DNA from: Antedon mediterranea
Lineage: Eukaryota > Animalia > Echinodermata
NCBI RefSeq assembly: GCF_964355755.1
Contig: NC_092670.1
Coordinates: 31,360,388-31,424,387 of the forward strand
DNA: 64,000 bases
Direction: 5' to 3'
The notes below the pieces were generated by a model. That model made no database searches. It saw nothing but the letters and a program-made list of their open reading frames with translations, and had not been told where the DNA came from. Shown here piece by piece: positions 2,074 to 63,575 of this stretch. The translations under genes and the position numbers were made by a program. The first letter of the stretch is position 1. Every line of letters begins with the position of its first letter.

Positions 2074-2400
2074 AAAATTATTGATGTGACATAACATCTA
2101 CTGTAGGTTTTTTGACGCAATGATATTAATTATTAATAACGCAATAACTATTTGTAAATGACGCACCCATGACGCACCTCTCCCAGGGGTCGTGAGCCTA
2201 GCTAGTGGGTAATACAATTGAAAAGTGCATAACCATGATCACCAATCAATTTCAAACGTCATCATAAATCATACTTTATACTACATAAAGTAGTACAGTG
2301 TGCGTCAAATTGAAATAAATATATTGAAATAGTTATTTATTAGCTAGTTTGCAGCTAAACATATTTTATAATAACTAAATAAGGCCTATTTATGGTTTAC

Positions 2401-4403
2401 GATGAAATCGGTCGCGTCTGAAATCGGTCGCGTTTGAAATCGGTCGCGATAAAATCAACTGCCGGTATTTTGTATGGCGCGCCGCTAGAGCTATAATCCT
2501 TTTGATGATATCGGTCGCGTTTGAAATCGGTCGCGTTTGAAATCGGTCGCGCTATTTTGTATGGATCGAGCGGGATGCATGCTAGAACGGGATATACATT
2601 TTTCGTTTATATATATTTAATTGATATTTTTTAGGAACTAGATTATTTATGTGGATATTTTTTACTTGGTTAATAAATATTTATTATCAATCATTAAATT
2701 AATTTTTTTTTTGTATTTCACAGGTCTCGGAGAAGGACTGTATCTTTTCAAAATGGCCATTTCTAAACACGTTTAAATATTATATTAGGCATAATGTTAT
2801 ATTTATTAGGCATATAATAATTTACCTCTATTAATATGTACTGTAATTAATATATTATATAGAGAATATACGTCTGTCGTGTCTTTTATTACGCAAACAA
2901 TTACGTAAAAGAGAACAATTTATTTAAAAACAAGAATTTTTACAATATAGCCCGTAAAGCCAGCGTATCCATTTTTATACTTATGCATACTGTGACTGAT
3001 TATATCATGTCGTTAACAACATACTATTCGATCACCTTATTTTATTTTCTATTTTCTAAGTGTATAATGATTATTGTTGAGGCAAATCACGTGTATGTTT
3101 TTATTTCTAATGTTTAAAATAGTTTTTAGTAAAATGATCATTATATGCGGATGGTTAACAGGCGAGTTACTGAAATAAACCCCCGAATAAGCCATATTGG
3201 AGATGCGCCTTCTATGATCGTGCAGCTGTTTCCTCTAACAATACGTTATTTTGCTGACGGGGATTCCCCTTTTTAAAAAACACGCACTAGTAGTGTGTCA
3301 AATCATGGAGAAAACACGTACGATCGTTGTCCATGGCGAGGTAAAGATGACGTCTATTACTAATAACCATACATTTGAAAGGTCTATAGGCCTCCTGCAC
3401 GTGTTTTTGTGAAACGATCCAATAAGCTATAGATGCTCGACGCGATTATGAGATCATGTTCATTCATTAAGTTTATTTAGCCTTTAAAATCGAAATACAT
3501 TTAAAACATAGGTAACCAAATCAAGACACGTGGAAATGTAAGGAGGCAAGGATAAGCAAAAGCAATTAAATCGCTGTAGCTCACAGGCTTGCTTATCCAT
3601 AATAATTCCGAATAAAGCACTTTTTCTATAATTTGACAGTATGATTTATACGTATATACGTCGGCGATACTATAGATTTTAATTTGAATATTTTTTATTT
3701 TTTTCTTCATTTATAATAATCATTTAATGTAAATAATTAAGTAAGTGCAACTCAGTGTCTCGCATTCATACGCCGTTCGTAAATCTAAACGTTTAAATAT
3801 CAGTGCAGATTACCTCTTTGAGAATTGTGTCCACCTTTATTATCCATACATTATTATTCTCACATCTATCATCGGCATATTATCTATATATTTTATTAAT
3901 ATCCTAAAACCATACGTAATTGTTTGCATAATAAAAGACACGACAAACGTATATTCTCTATATAATATATTAATTACAGTACATATAAATAGAGGTAAAT
4001 TATTATATGCATAATATAACATTATGCCTAATATAATATTTAAACGTGTTTAGAAATGGCCATTTTGAAAAGACACCGTCCTTCTCCGAGACCTGTGAAA
4101 TACAAAAAAAAAATTAATTAATGATTAATAATAAATATTTATTAACCAAGTAACAAATATCCACATAAATAATCTAGTTCCTTAAAAATATCAATTAAAT
4201 CTATATAAACGAAAAATGTATATCCCGCTCTAGCATGCATCCCGCTCGATCCATACAAAATAGCGCGACCGATTTCAAACGCGACCGATATAATCAAAAG
4301 TATAGCTCTAGCGGCGCGCCATACAAAATACCGGAAGTTGATTTTATCGCGACCGATTTCAAACGCGACCGATTTCAAGCGCGACCGATTTCATCTGACA
4401 CCC
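2401..4403. mobile_element. Foldback-type element with about 500-bp inverted arms
   Basis: 2401-2907 is inverted at 3913-4395, with GAAATCGGTCGCG subterminal repeats. The right end reads TGACACCC and the left end is clipped. An older partial copy lies at about 521-630. Confidence 0.85.
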
Positions 4404-4640
4404 TATTTATTACTACTACTAACTAGGCCTACGCCTTGCCTACATCTACCTACTCCTAGCTAGGCTAGATAGCCTAGACTACTTACTAGGCCTAGGCCTA
4501 GGCTAGGCCTACTTTTCCTACTAGTAGGCCTAGGGCCTAGCCCTAACGCCCTAACTAGCTAGGCCAAAAAGGGCCTACCATACCAGGCCCTACTAGCCTA
4601 TGCATACTACTACTACTCTAGCTAGTAGATAGGCCTAGGC

Positions 4641-5505
4641 GGCGCTAGTTCCGTTTCGCACCTGTCATTTATTTCGACTCAACATTTGTTAAGAAACTTT
4701 ATCGTGAGTACCAGACCTTAGAATTAGACCTCAAAAATACTTTTACGAAGGAGATCACACAAAAAGTGACAAATAAATCCTTTAAATTGATGAATTTACA
4801 GACGTGTTTCTCGCACATCAGTTCGTCAATTTCGCATACGCCATGTTCAATGTTGTTGTTTCTATGGAGCGCCAAAAGAGCAATCATAATAGAGGGCTAA
4901 AAACTTAATATAATGCATATATTTAATGCATTTATTGGTGAAAATTATGTTCAATTTTAATATATTTTGTCAATGTCAATGCAACAAAACCCTAGGCCTA
5001 AATCAGCATCACTACCTAGCCTAGGCCTAAGACCAAGAGGAATATTATTTAGATCATTGAGATGTAAAAACTACAGTACATGTAATAATATGACGATGAA
5101 TTTGTCGATTTTCATTCTTAAAAGTTAACGAAAACTGCAAAAACCATGTACAGTATCAACAGTAACATGTGTTGCATTGACATTGACAAAATATATTAAA
5201 ATTGAACGTAATTTTCACCAATAAATGCATTAAATATACGCATTATATTGAGTTTTTAGCCCTCTATTATGATTGCCCTTTTGGCGCTCCATAGAAACAA
5301 CAACATTGAACATGGCGTATGGAACCGATGTGCGAGAAATACCTCTGTAAATTCATCAATTTAAAACATTTATTTGTTACTTTTTGTGCGATCTCCTTCG
5401 TAAAAGTATTCTTGAGGCCTAATTCTAAGGTTTGGTACTCACGATAAAGTTTCTTAACAAATTTTGAGTCGAAATAAATGACAGGTGCGAAACGGAACTA
5501 GCGCC
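4641..5505. mobile_element. Mutator/MULE-like non-autonomous foldback element
   Basis: About 345-bp near-identical TIRs (GGCGCTAGTTCCGTTTCGCACC). Exact 9-bp TSD GGCCTAGGC at 4632-4640 and 5506-5514. Confidence 0.88.
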
Positions 5506-6249
5506 GGCCTAGGCTAGGTAGGAGACTGTTTAATAATAATAAGGACTTCTAAGGAATTCTCACTGAATTGAATTTCTGAGTGATTTATCACTGAAAACAC
5601 TTGAACAACCTTGCACGACGACGAAACTGTGTACAACAAACGCACACCTCCTCCGTCCGCCACCAATGATCTTTTTTTAGCCTACGTGACCACTCGACTC
5701 GGTAGTGGGCGTATCACTACACACGTGAGAAAACATGACCTACATAATATCCAGGGTCGAGTATTCAGTAGCAAAGATCGTATAGCGCCACTTCGTGGCG
5801 CTATAGTATCTTTGTTCAGTAGTACTCGAGTCGAGTCCTCCCTCTACCGTGTGATGATGGGTGTGTCACCAATATGAATACTGTCGTTCACTCACGTCGT
5901 CACAAAAAACAGGCTTAATTTGTATAACCAACGGTTAACCGATCCCGATGTGTATTTTTAAATTATTTTACGTTGGTTGTTTGTTTTACCTTAGTCTATA
6001 TAATATTATTACTTACTTGTTTACTTGTTTCCGGCACTCAGCAATGCTGGGTCCGGAGTCGAGGCTAGCCTAGGCTATGCCTATAAGCCCCTCTTGATAA
6101 TTACATCAACTCTTGAATATGGCGCAAATTTAAGAGGGTGGTTGGACCATGCCCGTTCAAGACCGGACTTAAATTGATTGGTTGATCTTGAAGCTACTAC
6201 ATCCTCCGATAACGAATTCCATAATATAATAGCTTTTCGACCAAATGAT

Positions 6250-6943
6250 GGGTATTAATTGCTAAACCCCGCAAACCTCCAAAAAAACATAGCAAACCCC
6301 ACCAAACCAACATAGTGATTGAATCATGTAGTGTACGACCCACTCGGTATATCAATGTAAAAAAAAAAATTAAATTTCTACTGTTCAACTTATTTTTGGG
6401 GTAAAACATCATTTTTGACAACCTCCAAAAAACCATAGCAAACCCCACCGAACCAACATAAAAGTGATTGAATCATGTAGTGTACGACCCACTGGGTATA
6501 TAAAATATTAAATTTCTACATTTCACTACTTATTTTGGGGATAAAATCATGCATTCTTTGGTTAAAAATTAGCAATCATTTTTGACCAAAAAATGGTGTT
6601 TTTACCCCCAAAATAAGTGGTTAACAGTAGAAATTTTATATTTTTTTAAATGGATATAGTACACTACATGATTCAATCACTTTTATGTTGGTTCGGTGGG
6701 GTTTGCTAAATTTTTTTTGCAGGTTTGCTGGGTTTAACAATCATTTTTGACCAAAAAATGATGTTTTACCCCAAAAATAAGTAGTTAACAGTAAAAATGT
6801 AGTATTTTTTTTTACATGGATATACCCAGTGGAGTGGGTTGTACACTATGATTCAATCACTTTTATGTTGGTTCGGTGGGGTTTGCTATGTTTTTTTGGA
6901 GGTTTGCGGGTGTTTGAGGGGTTTGCGGTGTTTAGCAATACCC
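6250..6943. mobile_element. Foldback element with duplicated internal units
   Basis: GGGTATT..GCTAAAC and GTTTAGCAATACCC ends. The unit GCAAACCCCACCGAACCAACATAAAAGTGATTGAATCAT occurs twice forward and twice inverted. Confidence 0.75.
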
Positions 6944-7495
6944 TATAATATTTCCAACAACTTTTCTTTTTGTCAACAACAAAAATGAACTTGCATGATG
7001 ATAACAAGAAACAAGACAGTGTGTGTAAAAGTAATAGCTGAGACAATATTTTGTTGTCTCATCAGTGGTTGTATGTACTTTAAAGAAATGTAGAGGGCGT
7101 AGTTTGTTTTTCCTGGCTGCTGCTCTATGCTCGCCTAGCCTGTGATCTCTCTGGTGGTTTGGTTGTTTTCATTCATCCGCGAGAAGAAAAAAAAGGATAC
7201 AATGTGAGTTTTTCTTTTATATTTATACTTATTTGTTATCCATTGATTTCCGTATTCTGTATATAGGCCTTGGGATACTATTATTATGGAAAATCCAAGT
7301 TTTTGCTTTATTATGGGCCTACTAGAGAGCATAAAGATATTAGAATATAAGAAATACCCTCCTTCTTATACTACTAGCTTCTAGCCTAGGCCTAGGCTAG
7401 GCCCAGCCAGGTCTTGTATGGTAATCAATTTAATGATAAAAAGAGAAAAACAATGCTCTAAAACAGTTAGGCCTATCGTGTACTGTACATCCTTA

Positions 7496-16600: not shown

Positions 16601-19600
16601 TTGTCATTTTAGCTGGCAACTAGGTTAATTTGTCCAAAGTTCAGTATGGTCAAAGCTTAATTTAACTTTGTTGATGATCTGATTAATGATTTTTTTAGCG
16701 CCATTCTCATTCATGGCACTGTAAAAAAGGATCAGACCAGGTGAGGGACTTCAATGATGAAGAGTGTCTAATATGTAAAGGCAGTTTCAGAGCCTAGGTC
16801 CAACAGATAGATCTCCCAGCTATTTTGGCAGATTCAATCACTTCTCTCCAAAGTTCAAACTGTGGTTGAAAATTACTACATATTTAAAGCATCAAAGGCA
16901 AAAATTCATAAAGTGAATAAAATATATAATAGTATGAATTTAAATAAAAAGGGTATTATTGTGTTTTCTTTTTCAGAGTACCTATGGTTGTAGTTGGAGT
17001 TTTAATTAGTGTCAGTAATTTAAACGATGATATGCTGTCACCTGTGTTTGGTTATGGCAGGTCACAGGTAAACTATAGGATGATGATGATACCTCAAGCT
17101 TGATTCCCACTTAACGCAACATGAGGGCATAACCAATCACGATGTGATGAATCATCTGAACTGCAAATGTGATTGGTCAACTCACTCACCTACATTGTTG
17201 CATCCAAGTGGGAACCACGCTATAGGTGCAAACCAGATTGTGGTCAGAGTATGATCTTGATAATTGTGTGCAATGTTACAATCGCTATTGTAGAAAACAC
17301 CAGCTAATGTTGAAACAACCGTTAATGTAGAACAATCAACTTCTAATGTAGTGAAACCTCCAGTTAATGTAGTTAACAACATCTTATGTAGTAAATACAA
17401 ACTTAGGGAGATTGCCTACGATGTATAGTCATTTTAGAGAGTATGAGATGGTGATGCGTGTGACAGTGGCGTAACAGGCGGGGGGGCAGGGGGGGCGGAA
17501 TACCCCCCTGGCGGATTTTACCGGGTTGAGAAGCGTTCGATCGGGCTGGGTAACAAGTGTAATATAATGTTGCGTTGTTGAGGTACTAATGAAAGACTCT
17601 AACTCGCTTGACTGTCGTAACACTATATTGTTTATTCAGTATAATACTTCAGTACAATATACAACTATAAGTATACATAAGGAACGGACGATCAATGATG
17701 CTGTCAGTGAGGTGTGGTGTGTGTAGGTCTGCTTCTGGAGAAGTGGTTGTAAGGTGTGTCTGGGCCCTTCTGAAACCTGGGGGTATATTGGCTCAGTTCA
17801 TTTGCATAATGTCATTACATCATCTGTGAGGGTAACGATTGGTCCTAAGTTGATCCAGGGGTGTTTAAGTGGGAGTGATTAACGGTGTCATAAGGTATTT
17901 CTGTGATGGATGACACTGTCAAATCTGTACTTAAATAGTGTCGATCACTCCTGGTTTTAACGATGGGAAAGTCACAAAATTAAGCTAAGTGTTTTCTTTA
18001 GGGACTCTATTATAAACTAAATGGTCGTTAAAACATCTGGACAAACTCTCCTTTGGACTTTCTGGGTCAAGTTTGTGAACCTATCTGAATTCCGATACAA
18101 AGGTCAATTTCTTAAATATAAAAGTATATCTTTATATCACATCCCTCTGTTTCCCTTTTTTTTTTCTAATCTATTTAACATATAAAAATGGTTATAATAG
18201 TGGCATGCAAAATTAAAGTTATATAAAAGAAAAAAACATTATTATACATATAAGCAAAAATTGAGTTAGCCAAAACCATTGACTCTGAAGTGTAACCTTA
18301 TCACTTTCACTCTCTCTCTTCTCTCTCTTTAAAAAATGAAATTAAAATTGAATTTGGTATAAAAATTCCGGAATTTATATAAAATTTTAAAACAAAAAAT
18401 GTATATAAAAAAAACAAAAGTGTTCTTCAAGATCGACATAATTGTGGGTCCGTTGCTTTGGAGGCATGCTACACTCGGATTACCGAAATATAAACATCAC
18501 AACGGTTGGGTTTCCCTAAAAAACATCGGTCAAGAAGTCGACTCCCGTTAATTATTTGAAATAGAAAAAAAAATTTTATAAAGGATAAATTGAAATCAAT
18601 CGGTGGGTTTATATAATAATCGATAAAAACGGAATGCACTCCACGGTATGTCCAACATGTAGGTAGTTGTGTAAGGGATCTCATTCAAATATACCATACC
18701 GCAATTCAAGCATTGGTATTTCTTGTTGAGGGATATTTGTTGGCAATTTTTGTGAAAAAATGTTCCGCAGCATTTGTTGATTGTACAGTCAGTATGAAAG
18801 TTTTTAATTTCGGGGTTACATTGACAAATTTGGCAGGGGGTATCTTGGTATTTATTTTCCAGGTACTGCATGTTACGAATGTGCGAATATAGTTTTTTCT
18901 TATATTTAGTTACAACATATCCAAATGGTGAGTGTTCGCTAGGTTTTAATTCGTCTTGGGGTATGATGCCTGTTTGTTGTCGGACTCTTGAAAAAAATGC
19001 TGTGCATTGTGGGGCTTTGATGTCTTTTGTAATTGCTAAGAGCAGGAGGGTCATAGAATAAATATGTTGTCTGTGAAATTCATGTGTGTTTGGTATACAA
19101 GTGGCGATGCCGTCTAGATTAATGGAAAGGTCGATTGTGGAAAAGTCAAGTAGGGCTGGTTCACTCTTATGCTTCCAAATGTAATCTATAATGGGGGAGG
19201 ACATTTTGTCGAAACAACATAAATAACTGCCAATGTGTAAAAGGGTATTTAATTTGAGGTTTGTCAGTTGGTCTGCTGGACGGATGTCGCAAAGGAATAA
19301 TAAAACTCTTTTCAAGGAATCTAAAGTAAATGGCATCGTTTTGGTAATATGGAGAATTACGTTTTGTTCGCTTTGGTAAAGGATTATCTTCTTTATAAGG
19401 GCACATTCTGTGGACAGGGGCGTCATTTGAATTTTGTGTTTTAAGCATAACTGTGTAACGTCAAGCTTTTCGGATTCCATTTTAGGGGGAAATTTGGAAT
19501 TGACTAAAATTACGATAAATAAAATTAAAATGTATTTAAAATAAACAATATTAAACTAAATAAACGATATAAAACTCAAACAATAAAATTTTAAGTTCAA

Positions 19601-22600
19601 CTATTATAACAATCTCACAAAAGTAAATTAACTTATAATTCGACAGTAAATACTGTATATTTGATACGCTCGTGCGACTTATTTATAGTCTGCCCATCCG
19701 GTTGTTTATATATATAGCTCGTAATTGGCTCTACTCCTCCCTCGAGCGTTAATCAAACGTCAATTGGTCAAATTTAAAGAACTTAAAAAATTTAAAAAAA
19801 ATAAAATAAAATACAAAGAAGGGATAGAAGAAAGAAAATATAAGATAAGAATAATATATACGATATATGATATGGCTTCAAATGAGTCACAGTACAGTAT
19901 GATATTCAAGTAAGATGATATGAAATACACAAAATCCTGACTGACAACTCGTGGGAAGACGCACTGCTTATCAGTACATTAACATGCGGTCAGTTGACTG
20001 TGGTTTTTGGCGTCTTTTATCTAAGCCGCCATCGCGGGCATCTCATACACAATTGTGACGCTGTGCGTGTGAGGCCACCTTAAAAAAATACACTCCTACT
20101 AATCGTATGTAACGCGCTAGCGATCAGCAAAATGAACGTACTTTCGTGGCTGGCTGTCACTCCAATACTCAATCTTTCACAGGCATACTAACACAACACT
20201 ACGATTGTTTACTACAGGTCTAGTCAAGCCTTAATAAATTTAATTAATATAAATCGACATAAGAATAATAAAGTATATTTTAACTAAAATATAAAAACCT
20301 AACACTAAATTTACAAGATAAATTCTATTTGATAACTGCTGAACATCGTGGCACAGAGCATAGTTGTTTGCTTGACATAAAAGGGTATTCCCCTACACAG
20401 GTCTCTGCGTGCGTGTGACGTGCCCAGCCAGCTGCTTGATAGTATAGAGAGAAAGCATGCAGCTCACGCAAGTGCAAGGTGCAATGGTTGAGTGAATTCA
20501 GGGATCACCTTAATTCCATGGTTTGTTACCTAAACACCACATGATGGTGAATATGCCTGTTAAAGTCTCAATGATACGATCCCTTAATGTACCATGTTGT
20601 TGTTAGGAGGCTTAAAGGGAGGAGGGATCTAGCCTAGTTTCGGTCGGCAAGAGAATGCCTTCCTCTGACAATTTAAGGTCGGCAATTGAAATTCGTGGGC
20701 TGGAAATTTCACCAAATTATATAGTTCATAAACAAAAGAGTTTAGCCGGAAATGCGATTTGCGGCCATACATAGGCCTATAGAGAAAAAAAAATTCGAGG
20801 GTATGGTTCCACTAAACAATTTAACGATCCACCCCGCCGTCAAACCTGGTTACGGCCCTGTTTCAGTCTTCTAACCGGAAAAATTACTACCTTTGCCAGG
20901 TGCGGATCCAATGTTAGATTGGGTTTTCACATGTTCAAATGTTATGTCACCTGAGTTTTTAACGGTGGAAAATGTACGATCATTTTGCTGATTGCTGTGC
21001 AATAAATGGGAGTGTTATTTCCAGGCCAACTACTACTAGTTAGGCGCCATTTATCATGAATTTTATGTGCGAGAGTACCATTTCCGACGATCTAGGGGTG
21101 TCATTTACCAAAATTCGCTTCGCCACAGCCCCCACCATGGGGGGGCTGTGGCTCAAGGATTTTCCCCTCTTTGCCCCCGCCTGACAAGACCCCCTTGTTA
21201 CGCGGCTGGCGTGTGATGAAATGGCCACTTTTTGAAAGTCGGTAGCTTGTGATAGGTGGATAGGAGTGTTGACAAAGTGCGAGGCAGCGAGGCATGCCAA
21301 ATATTTGTGCGAGGCATCATTTTATCATTTCCAAAAGTCCGAGGCATGCGAGGCATATAGTTTACAATTTCAAAAAGGTGCGAGGCATATCTTAACATGC
21401 TATTATGATATATTATAGGCCTAATAATCAATCGATACAAGCGTATCTAAATAGATTCGTGTATACACTCATCATGTTGTTTATTTTTATGTAACGATTG
21501 TTTTTTCATTCAAGTCATATCGTGTCAAATTTTACTTTTACAAAAGTGCCCAAACTACGGTTCAAAAATCTGAACGACAGTCTTCAACTTTCGATAAACA
21601 ATAATTGTTATAGCGACACACTCATCAAATGATTGCAATGTTTGTTGGCATTTTGAGCGTGTTCACTCACATGTCTCTCGAACATAGCAGAGTGAAAATA
21701 ATATTTTGTCACACCACTGCGCCTAGATCCGGTAGACCCGAGAGATGGACAATCCCTCTTTACTATTTAGCAGGTAGCGGAATGATTCAGCCCTCAGCTC
21801 AGAGGATTGTGGTGCATTCCCCTCCTATAGCACGTGGTTTCAGCAGCAACGCACAGACTTCTCTCTGAGCGGCGTGCCAAAGACATTTTTGACATTCCAT
21901 TCTCTAGGAACAACACGTGTACCTCTCTCGCAAATAAGGTGAACAGCGATTGCCAGGACAAGTTCAATAACTGGCGGTGAATAAAAGGTAACTGATATGC
22001 CGATCCAATAACATGCCGCAAAGAAAAAAATTGCGACAGAATTCTGGAGCGCGTGTGAAAAAAGACTTACGTTCGACAATTGTAATACTAGGCCTAAAAT
22101 TAAACTTTAGCTAATATGCTTAGCCCTAACCTAGATAAGAGGCCTATGTAGAAAATAATTTAATCAATTTTGATAAAATAATAATTGGTGTAATATTTAA
22201 TAATGATACACTATTCCTGTTTTAGTAAGCTAGGTATATTACGAACGATTTTTATTTATTGTTGTCCATGTACGTACTAATAAACCTGGCGCTAGTTTCC
22301 TTCGCTTGTATTTTTACTCCAAATTTGATAACTAACTTTATCGTGTGAATACCACACCTTAGCAGTATACCTCATGAGTACTTTAATGAAAGAATCACAT
22401 AAAAAGTAACAAATAAATCCTTAAATTAATGATTTTACAGGCGTGTTTCTCGCACACTGTTCGCGAATTTCACTTATTCAATGTTCAATATTTTTGTTTC
22501 TATGGAGCGCCAAAAGAGCAACGATAATAGAGGACTAAAACTCAGTGGAATGCGTCAATTTCTCATGCATTTATTGGTGAAAAACACGTTTTATTTCAAT

Positions 22601-25600
22601 ATATTTGTTAATTTGTCAATAAAAATGTTGTAATATGTTACTGCTGATACTGTTCTGTTTTCAAAGAATAATAATCGATCCTAAATCAACATCACTACCT
22701 AGTCTAGACCTAGGACATCCTACTAAGGATATTATGATGAATTTTTCTATTTTATTCTTTAAAAGGTTAACGAAACCGTGTACATTATCAACAGTAACAT
22801 TTTTCCTTACTGACAGTGACAAAATCTATTGAAATTGTACTTGATTTTCACCAAATAATGCGTTAAATATAAATGGATTCCACAGAGTTTTTAGCCCTCT
22901 AATTAATTTTGCTCTTTTGGCGTTCCATAGAAACCAAAATATTGAACATTGAGTGTGCGAAATGCGAGAAAAACAACGTCTGTAAAATCACCAATTTAAT
23001 GGATTTATTGTTACTTTTATGTGATTTTTCTTCATTAAAGTAGGCCTACTAATTCTAAGCTGTGGTATTCAGGATAAAGCCTTGGTTAAATTACAAGGCA
23101 GGTGCAAAAGGAAACTAGCCTAGCGGGCCTAGGCCTAGGCTACTTCAATTTCGGTGATTTCCTGCCTTGCAATTTTGAGAAATGATAAAATGATGCCTCG
23201 CATTTTTTGATGATGGTAAAACGATGCCTCGCATAAATTTCTGACTTGCCTCGCATGCCTTCCCTGCCTCGCGTGCCTCGCTGCCTCGCACTTTGTTACT
23301 ACCCGGTGGATAGACTGATAGCTAACAAATTTAGACATAGGTTTTGTAAAATATATAACATTTTCTACTTTTGCTGGCAATAGTAACTGCATTAACTGTT
23401 GACCGTTCTACATTAGCTGGTGTTGATTTTTATTTACTACATAATCTGTAGTGTTTCCAGTGGCGTATCCCCCCCCCCCCCCTGATTTTGTGTCAGTCGG
23501 CACATCATCGCGTCCGTCAGCAAATAAAGGTGCCGGGGAAAAAAATTAAGTTAGGAAAATAAGAATAAACTATTATTCTGACAATAATTGAGAACTGTAA
23601 ACATAATTCTTTTGAGTGTTTGTTTATTTACATATCATATCATTCCCTTCAGATCAACTATTTTTTATTTTCATTACATCTAACCAAACACGTAAAAAAT
23701 GTGGTTAAAATATCTTATCATCTACAGTAGCATCTATACGGCCGTACGCACTAGATTGTTTACTCAAAAGTCTTTGAACGGACCGGTGACCTTACCATAT
23801 TCAACCTTGTTTTTTTTGTATGTCTTCCTACGCTAAGATTATATATTTCCACATGCCATGTGCTTTTTTGTCTAAGATATATTTATTATAAGTGCCAAAA
23901 ACCCAATTTTTTTCTCGATATGAGGCCTTCATTATTCAAAATTTTTAAAGAAAAAGCACACATACCATAAAAAATATCCATGTATTTCATTTTTGGAACA
24001 GAATATTCCGTGAGGCTCAACTACAAAACCACCATTTTGTGATATGATGTCATCGTAAGCCAATCAAAACTGAGCTTTCTCGCGATTGGCATTGCTCACG
24101 GTTGAATGATTTTGGATTCTAGCTGATTTGATTGGTGGATGCGAATCACCCGCAGCGGAATGTTTTCTCTCGCGCGTGTACCATGAATCTCTCTGATCGT
24201 TACTACACAAAGTTAGAGCAATGAATTTGCCCGAATTCTGTTAATTCTGGTAAACAACTTTATATATTTTATAAGCATTTAATAACATGTTTTATTGATA
24301 TTTCCAATGGTGATATATAGAATAAATTACTAAAAAACGTAATTATATGTAATTATTTTAACCAAAAATGGCGTAGTTAATAGAATTGTCGACTGAGGCC
24401 GCGATGTTTTAGACCCTATATTTCGAAAACTACAAGTCAGATTTTCCTAATTCTTTCTTTATACTAACAGATAATGTTGGTTTGGTTTTAATTTTGCAGC
24501 GTTATCCCTATAAGACAACATGACTCATGACTATGCAATCCTAGAACATATATTGATCAGGTATATGTACAGATAATGACAATAATTTTGTCGGCAAAGT
24601 TGCAAATTCCCGTCCCCCTCCCAACTTCAAAATCCTGAATATGCCACTGAGTGTTTCTACATAAGCTGGAGGTTTTACTACATTAGCGATGGATTGTTCT
24701 ACATTAACGATTGTTCAGACATTAGCGGTTTTAACATGCAGGCATTAAAATCTATCAAAAATAATAATAATACAGTGTTTAAATGAAAAGAAATTTCACT
24801 GAAGAAATTATTTTGAATACTTTTTTGTTTTAATACAGTTAATAACATCATCAGTGTTTTTGATACTGAATATTGCGCTGACGATTATCCCGTTGGTGGT
24901 GCTACAACGACGTGATAGATTCCAACATTCTAAATATGAAGAACTACGTGGCGAGTCATATGTGCGAAATCCTGAATCAGATAATTTACTTGAGTCTTCA
25001 GAAGATGAAGGTACTTATACTTGTTGTTTTGTAAAGCTCTTTTTACAATATAAAACTAAATTGACAAAAATATGGTAATGATATGATATCATCATGTCCA
25101 TATATGGGTACATCACATTTTTTTGTCTCATACAGTTTAATAGTGTAGACAGAGCTTAAGAGGCATTACCTAAAAATGTAAATATTATTATTATAATAAA
25201 AATAATAATGATTAAAGCTGAAATAATTTGAACCCATTGCAGCCAGCAAAGATAGCACACAAGAAGTCTATTCTCTATACTATAACCATTGATGGCTGTA
25301 TAAGGTTGAATCTACAGTATCTTATTTTTCAGCTTCCATTCATTGATCCTTTAAAGTAATAAATAAGACACATGTAATCTTTTAGATGATAGTGATTCAA
25401 GTCAAGAAAAGATCACCAGTTCATACCAAACAAAAGGAGTCATTGACATAGAAGATATTGGCAAAGACCACAAAAAGAACCTGAATATCCAGATGTGTTC
25501 AGGGGCTACGCAATGCTCACCACAACAACGGGATCAATGCCGTAGTATCTTGCAAAAGCGAAAAAGATACTGGCAACACCTTAACCTATTCATGAGCATG

Positions 25601-45700: not shown

Positions 45701-48700
45701 CAATCAGGATGAGGTAATAACAACTGTAGGATGTGTTTGTAATAGTTAAATTTACAATCATTTAGGTTTGATCTCAACCAATGTTTTATATGTACAGTAG
45801 CATGTTTTCTAATGAATTGATAGTTTACATTCAGATTTGATCATGATCAACTTACTCATAATGTTGTGTAGATAGACGTGCTTTAGGGTTATATTCCAAT
45901 TTGATCATGATCAACTTAATCATGATTTTGTGTAGATAGATGTATTAGTTTTTACTTATATTCTGATTTGATCATGATAAATTTACTCATGATGTTGTGT
46001 AGATGTATTAGGTTTATATTCAGATTTTATCATGATCCGATAAACTTACTCATGATGTTGTGTAGATAGATGTACTGTATTAGGTTTATATTCAGATTTT
46101 ATCATGATAAACTTACTCATGATGTTGTGTAGATAGATGTACTGTATTAGCTTTATATTCAGATTTGATCATGATAAACTTACTCATGATGTTGTGTAGA
46201 TAGATGTACTGTATTAGGTTTATATTCAGATTTTATCATGATAAACTTACTCATGATGTTGTGTAGATAGTATGTAGGTTTATATTTCATATTTGATCAT
46301 GATCAACTTACTCATGATGTTGTGTAGATAGTATGTAGGTTTATATTTCATATTTGATCATGATCAACTTACTCATGATAATGTGTAAATAGATATGTAT
46401 TACTGTAGGTTTATATTTAGATTTGATCATAATCAATGATATGAACCTATGTAGCAGTGTTGACCATGTATAGTACTGTACTTAACAGTGCTAAAAATGT
46501 GAATAAAACCAAGCGATGATACACCACACAGTAGCGAAATGGTAGAATAGTGGATGATATAAAAGATCTCAACACTGAATAGAATTATGTGGATTAAAAC
46601 TCTGTAATTAGTGTTGATTTCAGAAGAATAATGTACTATAAAGGGATTAGGACTATGAATAGATTCCTTGGGAATACCGGAAGCTGAACCCATCATGACG
46701 AATCTTAGTTATAAAAGAACTACGGTATTGTACTTTGTGAATGGTTTTAGTTTAGTTCAAACAACGTATCAAAATATCCAACATGAACAATTGGTTTAAA
46801 ACCTGGTGAAGTATGTGATCTGTACTAAATGCAATACATTATCAACAAATTTCAAACCATTTAAATGAATTTCAAATAGTAATCTTAACTGGATTTTTTC
46901 AGGACCATGATCTATTGTGATCAAGATATGTATTGTGCTTTTTCTATGTTTACTACAACCATGGAGAAATAAGTTGTTATTACTATTTCTATAACACATG
47001 GTTACATAGTGGGGTCCTTAATTATGAGTGTACCTGTAAAACAGATAAACGTGGATTTTTAGATACAGTAGGACCTGTATTAACAGGACAACACTAAAAA
47101 AATAGTACCTACTGTTGTCAGAATAGGGATTGAGCCCTAGTGCCACTCATTCATTTTACATGAAAGTGTCCCCTTACTAAGGGTATGTTCAAACTCACGG
47201 AGTTACGGTGGAGTTATCTACTCAAGGCGTACGGTAATCCGTGGCGTTAAAAGCCAAGGTGTTCAGACACAACGACCAACATTCCAATGCCTTGCGTTTA
47301 AAACACTCTGATATATGTATAAATTCATGACAATGCATGAAAGTTAACATCGTTTACATTGTTTTTTGTTTTTTTCTATTTATATAATGTTTACCTTCAA
47401 ATATACTGATTTGTTCTTACTACTTGTAGAATAGAATTGCATTTTAATTCAAAATAATTTAAAACGTAATTGTTACACGGACAATTATCTGATTAATTGA
47501 TTTAATTTATAAAAATATCATATCACTGATGCCAACTTTACTGTAAAAATTTAAAAAAAAACTTTAAAATCTGAACCTGAAAATACATTTGACATGGCTA
47601 TTTCGCTGTCGTATCATAGGGTACGGGTATGTTGTTGCTGTCTGCTAATCGTGGTCGTGTATTTTCATTGGTTAAGGCTAAAATCACTGATGCATCACTG
47701 GATTAGCGTTATGAAATCTACCCTCTCCCGCTAGAGTTGTTAACGCCACTGGCGCGGAGTAACAGCTCCCTAACGCTAAAGCGGCATGGTTCAGACACAA
47801 AAATATGTACGCCACTTACATAACTCCACCGTAACTTTGTGAGTCTGAACATACCCTTAAATAAGGGGTTCTACTGTGGATGAATTGTAAGAGGAATGGA
47901 AGAGGAATGGAAGAAAAATGTTTAATATGACTGGGGTAATAATGTTCTGCGCATTGAGAGCTTGCTTATATGCGCTATATAAGAATGAACTATTATTATT
48001 ATTATTATTATTCTAAAAACTATGTTTGCATTCAGTATACGGTAGTTAATTTAAATAAAATAGGTTTTCTTTTCCGAAAAACAGAGCTAAATTTAAGATT
48101 TAGAAATCATAACTTCCTTCTGTGTTGTGAGAAAATCTGATTGCACATTTATCTAAATGATCTATTATGACCTATCGTCAGACCTATGATTTTTAAATAG
48201 AAGGGCCTATAGATTGTAAAATGAAGGGCTAAATTTAACCTAATAAACTTATGATATTTTCTAGATCTTACTAGGCCTGTAGTTTTGCCTTCAATGTAAT
48301 CTCTCTTGAGATAATAACAAGCATAATGTAAAAATAAGTCTGTGAGAAAATGTAAGTAATTCTCAAGTATTTTAAAAAAAACTAGAAAAAAAAACCTTTG
48401 ATTGAAACATTCCCACTGGCAAATGACTAGAAATGTTGCTGAGAGGGATACACAAGTATAGATGGAATGTGACAAAAACTAGATAAGCTGCTTGTGGATG
48501 ATTTGATTGTAAGATTCCATAAGCCTGAGCCTTATGACAGATGATTGGGTGATAACTCCTAGTCCAGGGTCAATCATTTCTATCATCACCATCTGTAGAT
48601 GTACCACTATCATCACCTGTATTAGCAATGTCAAGGAAATATTCATAAATTACCTAATTTTTATTGTTAAAATGTGTTGCTCTGATTTATTAACCTAATT

Positions 48701-62764: not shown

Positions 62765-63575
62765 TACTTACACATATTTAGGCCTACTTACACATATTTA
62801 GGCCTACTTACACATATTTAGGCCTACTTACACATATTAGGCCTACTTACACATATTTAGGCCTACTTACACAATTATTTAGGCCTACTTACACATATTT
62901 AGGCCTACTTACACATATTTAGGCCTACTTAAACATATTTAGGCCTATACTTACACATTTTTACTTACACATATTTAGGCCTACTTATACATATTTAGGC
63001 CTACTTACACATATTAGGCCTACTTACACATATTTAGGCCTACTTACACAATTATTTAGGCCTACTTACACATATTTAGGCCTACTTACACAATCATATT
63101 TAGGCCTACTTAAACATATTTAGGCCTACTTACACATTTTTACTTACACATATTTAGGCCCACTTATACATATTTAGGCCCACTTACACATATTTAGGCC
63201 TACTTACACATATTTAGGCCCACTTACACATATTTAGGCCCACTTACACATATTTAGGCCCACTTACACATATTTAGGCCTACTTATACATATTTAGGCC
63301 CACTTACACATATTTAGGCCCACTTACACATATTTAGGCCTACTTACACATATTTAGGCCTACTTACACATATTTAGGCCCACTTACACATATTTAGGCC
63401 TACTTACACATATTTACTTACACATATTTAGGCCTACTTAAACATATTTACTTACACATATTTACTTACACATATTTAGGCCTACTTACACATATTTAGG
63501 CCTACTTACACATATTTAGGCCTACTTACACATATTTACTTTTTACACATATTTACTTACACATATTTACTTACA
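62765..63575. repeat. Minisatellite, 20-bp unit, about 40 copies
   Basis: TAGGCC(T)ACTTACACATATT repeated with no unique spacers. Confidence 0.95.

Follow-up and report, generated by a model that had tools for sequence, protein, structure and literature searches.

A likely accessory reading frame of a crinoid LTR retrotransposon whose 3' end is enclosed by a hAT-like element

What is an intact, intronless reading frame without recognizable relatives doing in front of a polypurine tract (PPT) and a long terminal repeat (LTR), within an intron of a host gene? The question is raised by a stretch of 64,000 nucleotides from Antedon mediterranea (assembly GCF_964355755.1, contig NC_092670.1, positions 31,360,388 to 31,424,387), which was analysed over its full length, is referred to here as the window and is numbered from its first letter. 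The minus strand of the window carries an open reading frame (ORF) of 294 amino acids, whose product contains a candidate zinc finger. It is likely to be an accessory ORF specific to one subfamily of an LTR retrotransposon of crinoids; this copy represents the 3' end of that retrotransposon and lies inside a hAT-like element.

Four parts follow one another on the minus strand: promoter motifs, the 294-amino-acid ORF, a PPT and an LTR bounded by TG..CA. This order had been proposed in an earlier, sequence-only reading of the locus, and it is present in the DNA. The LTR (18141-17558) is 584 bp long, starts with TGTG and ends with TACA. Copies of it and of the neighbouring parts were studied by means of short contigs from public sequencing runs (7 of the 15 listed), with the organisms coded A to D; contig depth in these runs is a rough guide and not a copy number, the library types are not on record, and run X5 is guessed to be RNA. 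The repeat stands in the 3' LTR position, and its depth and a contig of organism D that departs from the window exactly at 17558 mark it as a repeated element end. Its terminal inverted repeat exists, but matches in nine of ten letters and not over the full 10 bp claimed, and an AATAAA is found at LTR position 506 (17636-17631), 78 bp short of the LTR end. The PPT abuts the TG of the LTR as had been stated, although the 24-nt tract then described holds one C; as delimited here (18167-18142), it has 25 purines among 26 letters. Its pure part measures 18 nt, and the window's list of uninterrupted purine runs of at least 15 nt, 12 in all, does not hold the tract in full. One other pure purine run (18330) also precedes a TG. 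A 5' LTR is absent from this copy. A metagenome search with a 20-nt LTR pattern returned two loci, both of them bacterial chance matches, and identity with the Troyka elements was ruled out because their ends are given as CG..CG (PMC12440569).

The ORF itself (19480-18596) is the longest of five ATG-initiated ORFs of at least 100 amino acids in the window, and when the 3-kb region was shuffled 500 times no ORF of 294 codons arose, the shuffle maximum being 212. Its sense strand is rich in A and C, as is that of the LTR, with GC skews of -0.29 for the ORF and -0.19 for the LTR, compared with +0.04 for host exons and +0.03 for the hAT arm described below. Between the ORF and the PPT lies a PPT-side internal region (18595-18168), the predicted 3' untranslated region of the ORF, which is represented by a contig in organism C (18167-18555) and left at 18555 by most copies in organism B. 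No AATAAA occurs between the ORF stop and the LTR, and the predicted end of a transcript would thus lie within the LTR.

Motif matches upstream of the ORF define a predicted internal promoter (19767-19652), made up of two CCAAT boxes (19767 and 19728), two TATAAA boxes (19710 and 19687) and an initiator-like CAGT (19655), and no ATG is encountered from 19660 to the ORF start at 19480. The full arrangement, a pattern that was fitted afterwards, occurs once in the window, while the looser combination CCAAT..TATAAA gives 14 matches. Words and palindromes shared between the LTR and the promoter are not above shuffles (12 common 9-mers versus 10.2, a number reached by 70 of 200 shuffles). A low-depth X1 contig of 1,032 bp matches the promoter region only (19569-19778, with 13 differences and 10 gaps); the remainder of this contig towards the ORF, roughly 750 letters, is unmatched at 80%, and it is possibly a diverged relative that has retained the promoter.

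Depth was read relative to the flanks of the locus. Flank contigs of run X1 have depths of 244 (intronic) and 290 (exon-containing) and serve as the baseline; the similarity of the two values suggests that X1 is DNA. Relative to this flank, the LTR stands at about 727x and the PPT-side region at about 693x, a ratio near 1 that is non-discriminating. Ratios of LTR to internal depth of 1.9-2.5 in X5 and of 2.8 in X9 fit paired LTRs. The contig of organism D, the deepest (36.4) of the eight listed for its run, covers 17558-17675, beyond which it has 160 letters of other sequence, starting with TGG on the element strand. TGG is the expected start of the primer-binding site that comes behind a 5' LTR, and a 5' LTR with such a site would give this passage from the LTR end into TGG.

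The ORF is repeated as well. X1 contigs of the ORF and promoter (organism A) reach about 19x the flank depth and differ by one letter over some 200 bp. Organism B contributes a gap-free ORF contig of 477 bp with 20 differences (96% identity), a second ORF variant of about 87% identity with gaps, and a promoter contig (19495-19778) that is 95% identical. Being multi-copy and occurring in a second organism, the ORF is not a single-copy retrocopy, a possibility that the sequence-only reading had itself raised. Contigs overlap from the ORF to the PPT, with one of organism B covering 18526-18715 across the stop, one of organism A covering 18408-18601 and one of organism C covering 18167-18555; that of organism B extends 30 letters into the part common to the abundant LTR family, and no single contig among those listed covers the whole path. 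Two contigs of organism B show the abundant PPT-side form parting from the window 41 bp past the stop, at 18555. Cover in X2 is low over 18726-19484, which proves nothing on the absence of the ORF there. A 71-codon stop-to-stop frame (18469-18684, minus strand) overlaps the ORF end and crosses the part common to the abundant family of organism B; it has no Pfam match.

The earlier description did not include the enclosure of the element, which actually lies inside a hAT-like unit of 3,745 bp (17464-21208). The unit is flanked by an exact 8-bp target-site duplication, the left copy of which (17456-17463) is identical to the right copy (21209-21216). The left arm (17464-17557, plus strand) has at its start a terminal inverted repeat of CAG type, 12 of whose 16 letters match the end at 21208, and the right arm with its terminal inverted repeat occupies 20861-21208 (minus strand). 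Among six candidate ends in the window, two CAG-type end pairs with an 8-bp duplication were found, and we take the unit to be hAT-like on the rule of the 8-bp duplication. The sequence that precedes the promoter resembles a DNA transposon and comprises a non-coding part (19768-20179, minus strand), in which a scan found no gag/pol frame, and a repeated segment of 681 bp (20180-20860, minus strand), which is flanked by a 5-bp direct repeat and has, at 20860, a second hAT-like end. This segment is missing from some copies, and in runs of three organisms 20060-20174 joins 20861-21057, which gives a direct joint from 20174 to 20861. An inverted repeat of 26 bp (88%; 20119-20144 and 20971-20996) brackets the segment.

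At position 20059, X1 depth is 24x that of the flank, as compared with 19x for the ORF and 19x for the promoter. Some X1 variants within 20059-20716 have depths of 5,000-7,000, in line with that of the ORF, which suggests that it is the composite that exists in roughly 20 copies. Among the listed contigs, none spans the whole unit and none bridges 19778-19908 or the 17557/17558 junction. A different origin, which we regard as unlikely, is that the promoter and ORF are cargo carried by the hAT-like element in the manner of a Pack-TIR, with the LTR and PPT joined behind them through insertion and deletion, and that the ORF never was a retroelement gene. Such an origin would agree with the exact duplication around 17464-21208, with the similar X1 depths of ORF, promoter and position 20059 when both parent repeats are far deeper, with the joint seen in three organisms and with the departure of most PPT-side copies of organism B at 18555; multicopy Pack-TIRs are, moreover, described from animals (PMC8277862). 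However, it would require a breakpoint situated 41 bp past the stop, the ORF lacks a separate poly(A) signal and shares its strand skew with the LTR, and no host donor gene was found. Nor do the listed contigs, with none across 19778-19908, connect further copies of the ORF with the hAT arm.

The encoded protein has one recognizable feature. Residues 216-260 (18835-18701, minus strand) present eight putative zinc ligands, C216, C219, C232, C237/C238, H243, C246, C257 and C260, in the cross-brace spacing of a C4HC3-type finger, which makes the segment a candidate for metal binding. The N-terminal 210 residues are predicted to be helical, with low confidence; the AlphaFold models computed from the single sequence were poor (pLDDT 46 and 40). 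A fold search with Foldseek gave no match at E<=0.001, and the best VIA-align Z-score of 6.6 is in the range of common helical arrangements. A possible BTB/POZ-like reading of residues ~50-105, made by eye, found no profile or fold support. The protein has no transmembrane helix, the best 19-residue hydropathy being 1.05, which bears out the description of a non-env ORF given previously.

Atlas matches of the finger, to be taken as leads only, range from 0.85 to 0.91 and include clusters of small viral RING proteins, the RINGv domain of listerin and the C-terminal domain of FANCL. The best of them are small RING proteins of Nucleocytoviricota (0.90-0.91), with 134-150 shared features, compared with 170 typical of the same family. 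The finger's best match to a RING-H2 domain in the PDB is non-significant (E=0.72). No relative of the protein was confirmed among 289 candidates, 52 metagenome stretches and six viral stretches, and the atlas gave no usable match for the whole protein. The sole match among 1.84 billion representatives, P0002, was rejected, as it is a repeat-driven alignment to a 31-residue Cys repeat in a membrane protein of 2,683 amino acids. It is highly improbable that the ORF is a processed copy of a host RING or PHD gene, or a gene fragment of a large DNA virus, captured beside the LTR: the lack of introns and the Nucleocytoviricota proteins at the head of the finger matches would suit such a capture, but the representatives contain no relative save this one repeat-driven match, the viral contigs contain none, and the ORF is multi-copy.

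The listed substitutions in the ORF, drawn from the rows shown (40 of 318 and 40 of 121), number 25, of which nine are synonymous and 16 non-synonymous. None creates a stop and none falls in the nine candidate ligand codons, which weighs on the side of the accessory reading. For the 96% variant, 15 of the 20 differences are listed and eight are synonymous versus 4.3 expected (P=0.034), in a subset that was chosen afterwards. Three of the four listed ORF gaps measure 3 nt; 13 further rows stand outside this listing.

Several results weigh against the reading of the ORF as an accessory gene of the retroelement with a RING-like product. A scan of 39 frames, made up of 38 from a list of 70 together with the finger, found no gag/pol (retroelement) domain in this copy, and no listed contig spans the ORF to the LTR or links it to pol. 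The ORF does not always occupy the slot between pol and the PPT, as had been asked, and most PPT-side copies are without it: the share that carries it is about 1 in 35 for X1 (organism A) and 1 in 8-14 for organism B. When all 25 substitutions are considered, the nine synonymous changes compare with 6.6 expected given the share of transitions, which is not significant (P=0.19, pN/pS 0.45). The fourth listed gap, in the 87% variant, measures 1 nt, and in X2 the gapped variant of the ORF 3' end is the deeper of two. The finger scores E=0.35 and 11.6 bits against the Pfam family zf-RING_2, below the cut-off of 27.3. Typical RINGs that bind ubiquitin-conjugating enzymes (E2) have a Trp and a Pro-x-Cys-Arg motif, and PHD fingers have an aromatic residue two positions before the corresponding Cys; this finger has neither of the former features and does have an aromatic two residues before C257.

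The same substitution data give some room to the idea that the ORF is a passenger, a former retroelement gene that stayed intact through a recent amplification and has no current function. We hold this to be rather improbable. It would account for the near-identical copies in organism A, for the non-significance of the overall synonymous excess and for the gapped variants, but fits poorly with a frame that in organism B is open across 477 bp at a divergence of 4%, with gaps that in three of four listed cases are of 3 nt, and with a promoter that is 95% identical in that organism. The substitution pattern leans to constraint without showing constraint.

As to what the protein might do, a role as a RING-variant ubiquitin ligase (E3) is put forward tentatively, by analogy, and we would give it somewhat less than an even chance. 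The lack of the Trp and of Pro-x-Cys-Arg, together with the PHD-like aromatic, leaves a chromatin-reader role open, and the possibility of a PHD-like reader, suggested by these residues, is a doubtful one; some other function altogether is about equally doubtful.

Under the preferred reading of an accessory ORF of the retrotransposon, the locus could have come about as follows. The ORF would have arisen as a subfamily-specific gene in the slot between pol and the PPT, and a subgenomic mRNA might run from ~19655, driven by the predicted internal promoter, to the poly(A) signal of the LTR. The helical N-terminal part may bind a target, and an E2-recruiting finger may then act on a host silencing or restriction factor, which is proposed by analogy only. 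The retroelement would have landed in a small hAT element, a deletion would have removed the 5' part of the retroelement, and the composite could later have moved by means of a hAT transposase supplied in trans. In its most far-reaching form, which we consider a long shot, the proposal is that a crinoid LTR lineage possesses an orphan, E3-like counter-silencing gene with a promoter of its own, that this gene moved to a hAT vehicle now present in ~20 young copies, and that it is expressed, selected and aids escape from silencing in trans. If the preferred reading is true, an orphan finger protein is what at least one echinoderm element carries in this slot, and the ORF is proposed as a testable candidate gene for a counter-defence ligase encoded by an animal transposon. 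Should the copies inside hAT ends be the ones that have multiplied and stayed functional, this would be a case of a retroelement accessory gene switching to a DNA-transposon vehicle.

The host gene in which the composite is located is GPR155/LYCHOS (10307-31524, plus strand), identified by 13 exon matches to the protein named for Antedon mediterranea, with 100% identity in the first exon. The LTR element is antisense to it, within the intron that extends from 17070 to 24836. Around the locus, inverted-repeat elements are nested in one another (17296-24726), with arms at 17303-17372/24657-24726 and 21272-21347/23163-23296, and a second non-autonomous hAT-like element of 1,192 bp (23458-24649) likewise has an exact 8-bp duplication. 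Elsewhere, the window contains tandem arrays with units of 20 bp and 67 bp, along with two long elements with inverted repeats that resemble miniature inverted-repeat transposable elements, in the regions 62765-63538, 45824-46430 and 2391-5541.

How does such an ORF compare with known systems? C4HC3 RING variants, such as the FANCL C-terminal domain and the RINGv of listerin, and small viral RING proteins resemble the finger in ligand spacing and in language-model features, with no significant match in sequence or fold. A gene within DNA-transposon ends, apparently multiplied with them, is known from Pack-TIRs, in which genes are enclosed by such ends (PMC8277862), and from AACRNL, which lies inside non-autonomous hAT ends and is reported to counter H3K27me3 silencing (PMC12957317); here, the cargo is a fragment of an LTR element and encodes a candidate enzyme. 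In the literature searched, which extended to sources other than Repbase, most subscription papers and supplements, no listing describes a RING-type ORF in the slot between pol and the PPT; non-env extra ORFs and internal promoters in invertebrate elements have already been described. LTR retrotransposons of bdelloid rotifers carry ORF3s that encode a GDSL esterase, a DEDDy exonuclease, or coiled-coil or transmembrane proteins and are said to be expressed from spliced messages, and the words 'RING' and 'zinc' do not occur in the main text of that source (PMC5408684). As is proposed for the ORF described here, these are family-specific non-env ORFs between pol and the 3' LTR of invertebrate elements. 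In the Oikopleura elements Tor3b and Tor4b, the env gene, which encodes a membrane glycoprotein, is driven by an internal promoter mapped by 5' RACE (PMC4402516). The Antedon ORF resembles these in being a 3' gene of a deuterostome LTR element with an internal promoter, and differs in that it lacks a membrane helix and that its promoter is predicted only. The additional ORFs of the plant elements Athila, Grande and Retand also lie between pol and the 3' LTR, have no homologue outside the elements, are found on most copies of a family and are often antisense (PMC7264820). The ORF in Antedon is likewise an orphan, but it is in sense orientation and occurs on a minority of copies. It is best read as a variant of the known extra ORFs, comparable to the bdelloid ORF3s, to the plant additional ORFs and to the Tor env genes with their internal promoter.

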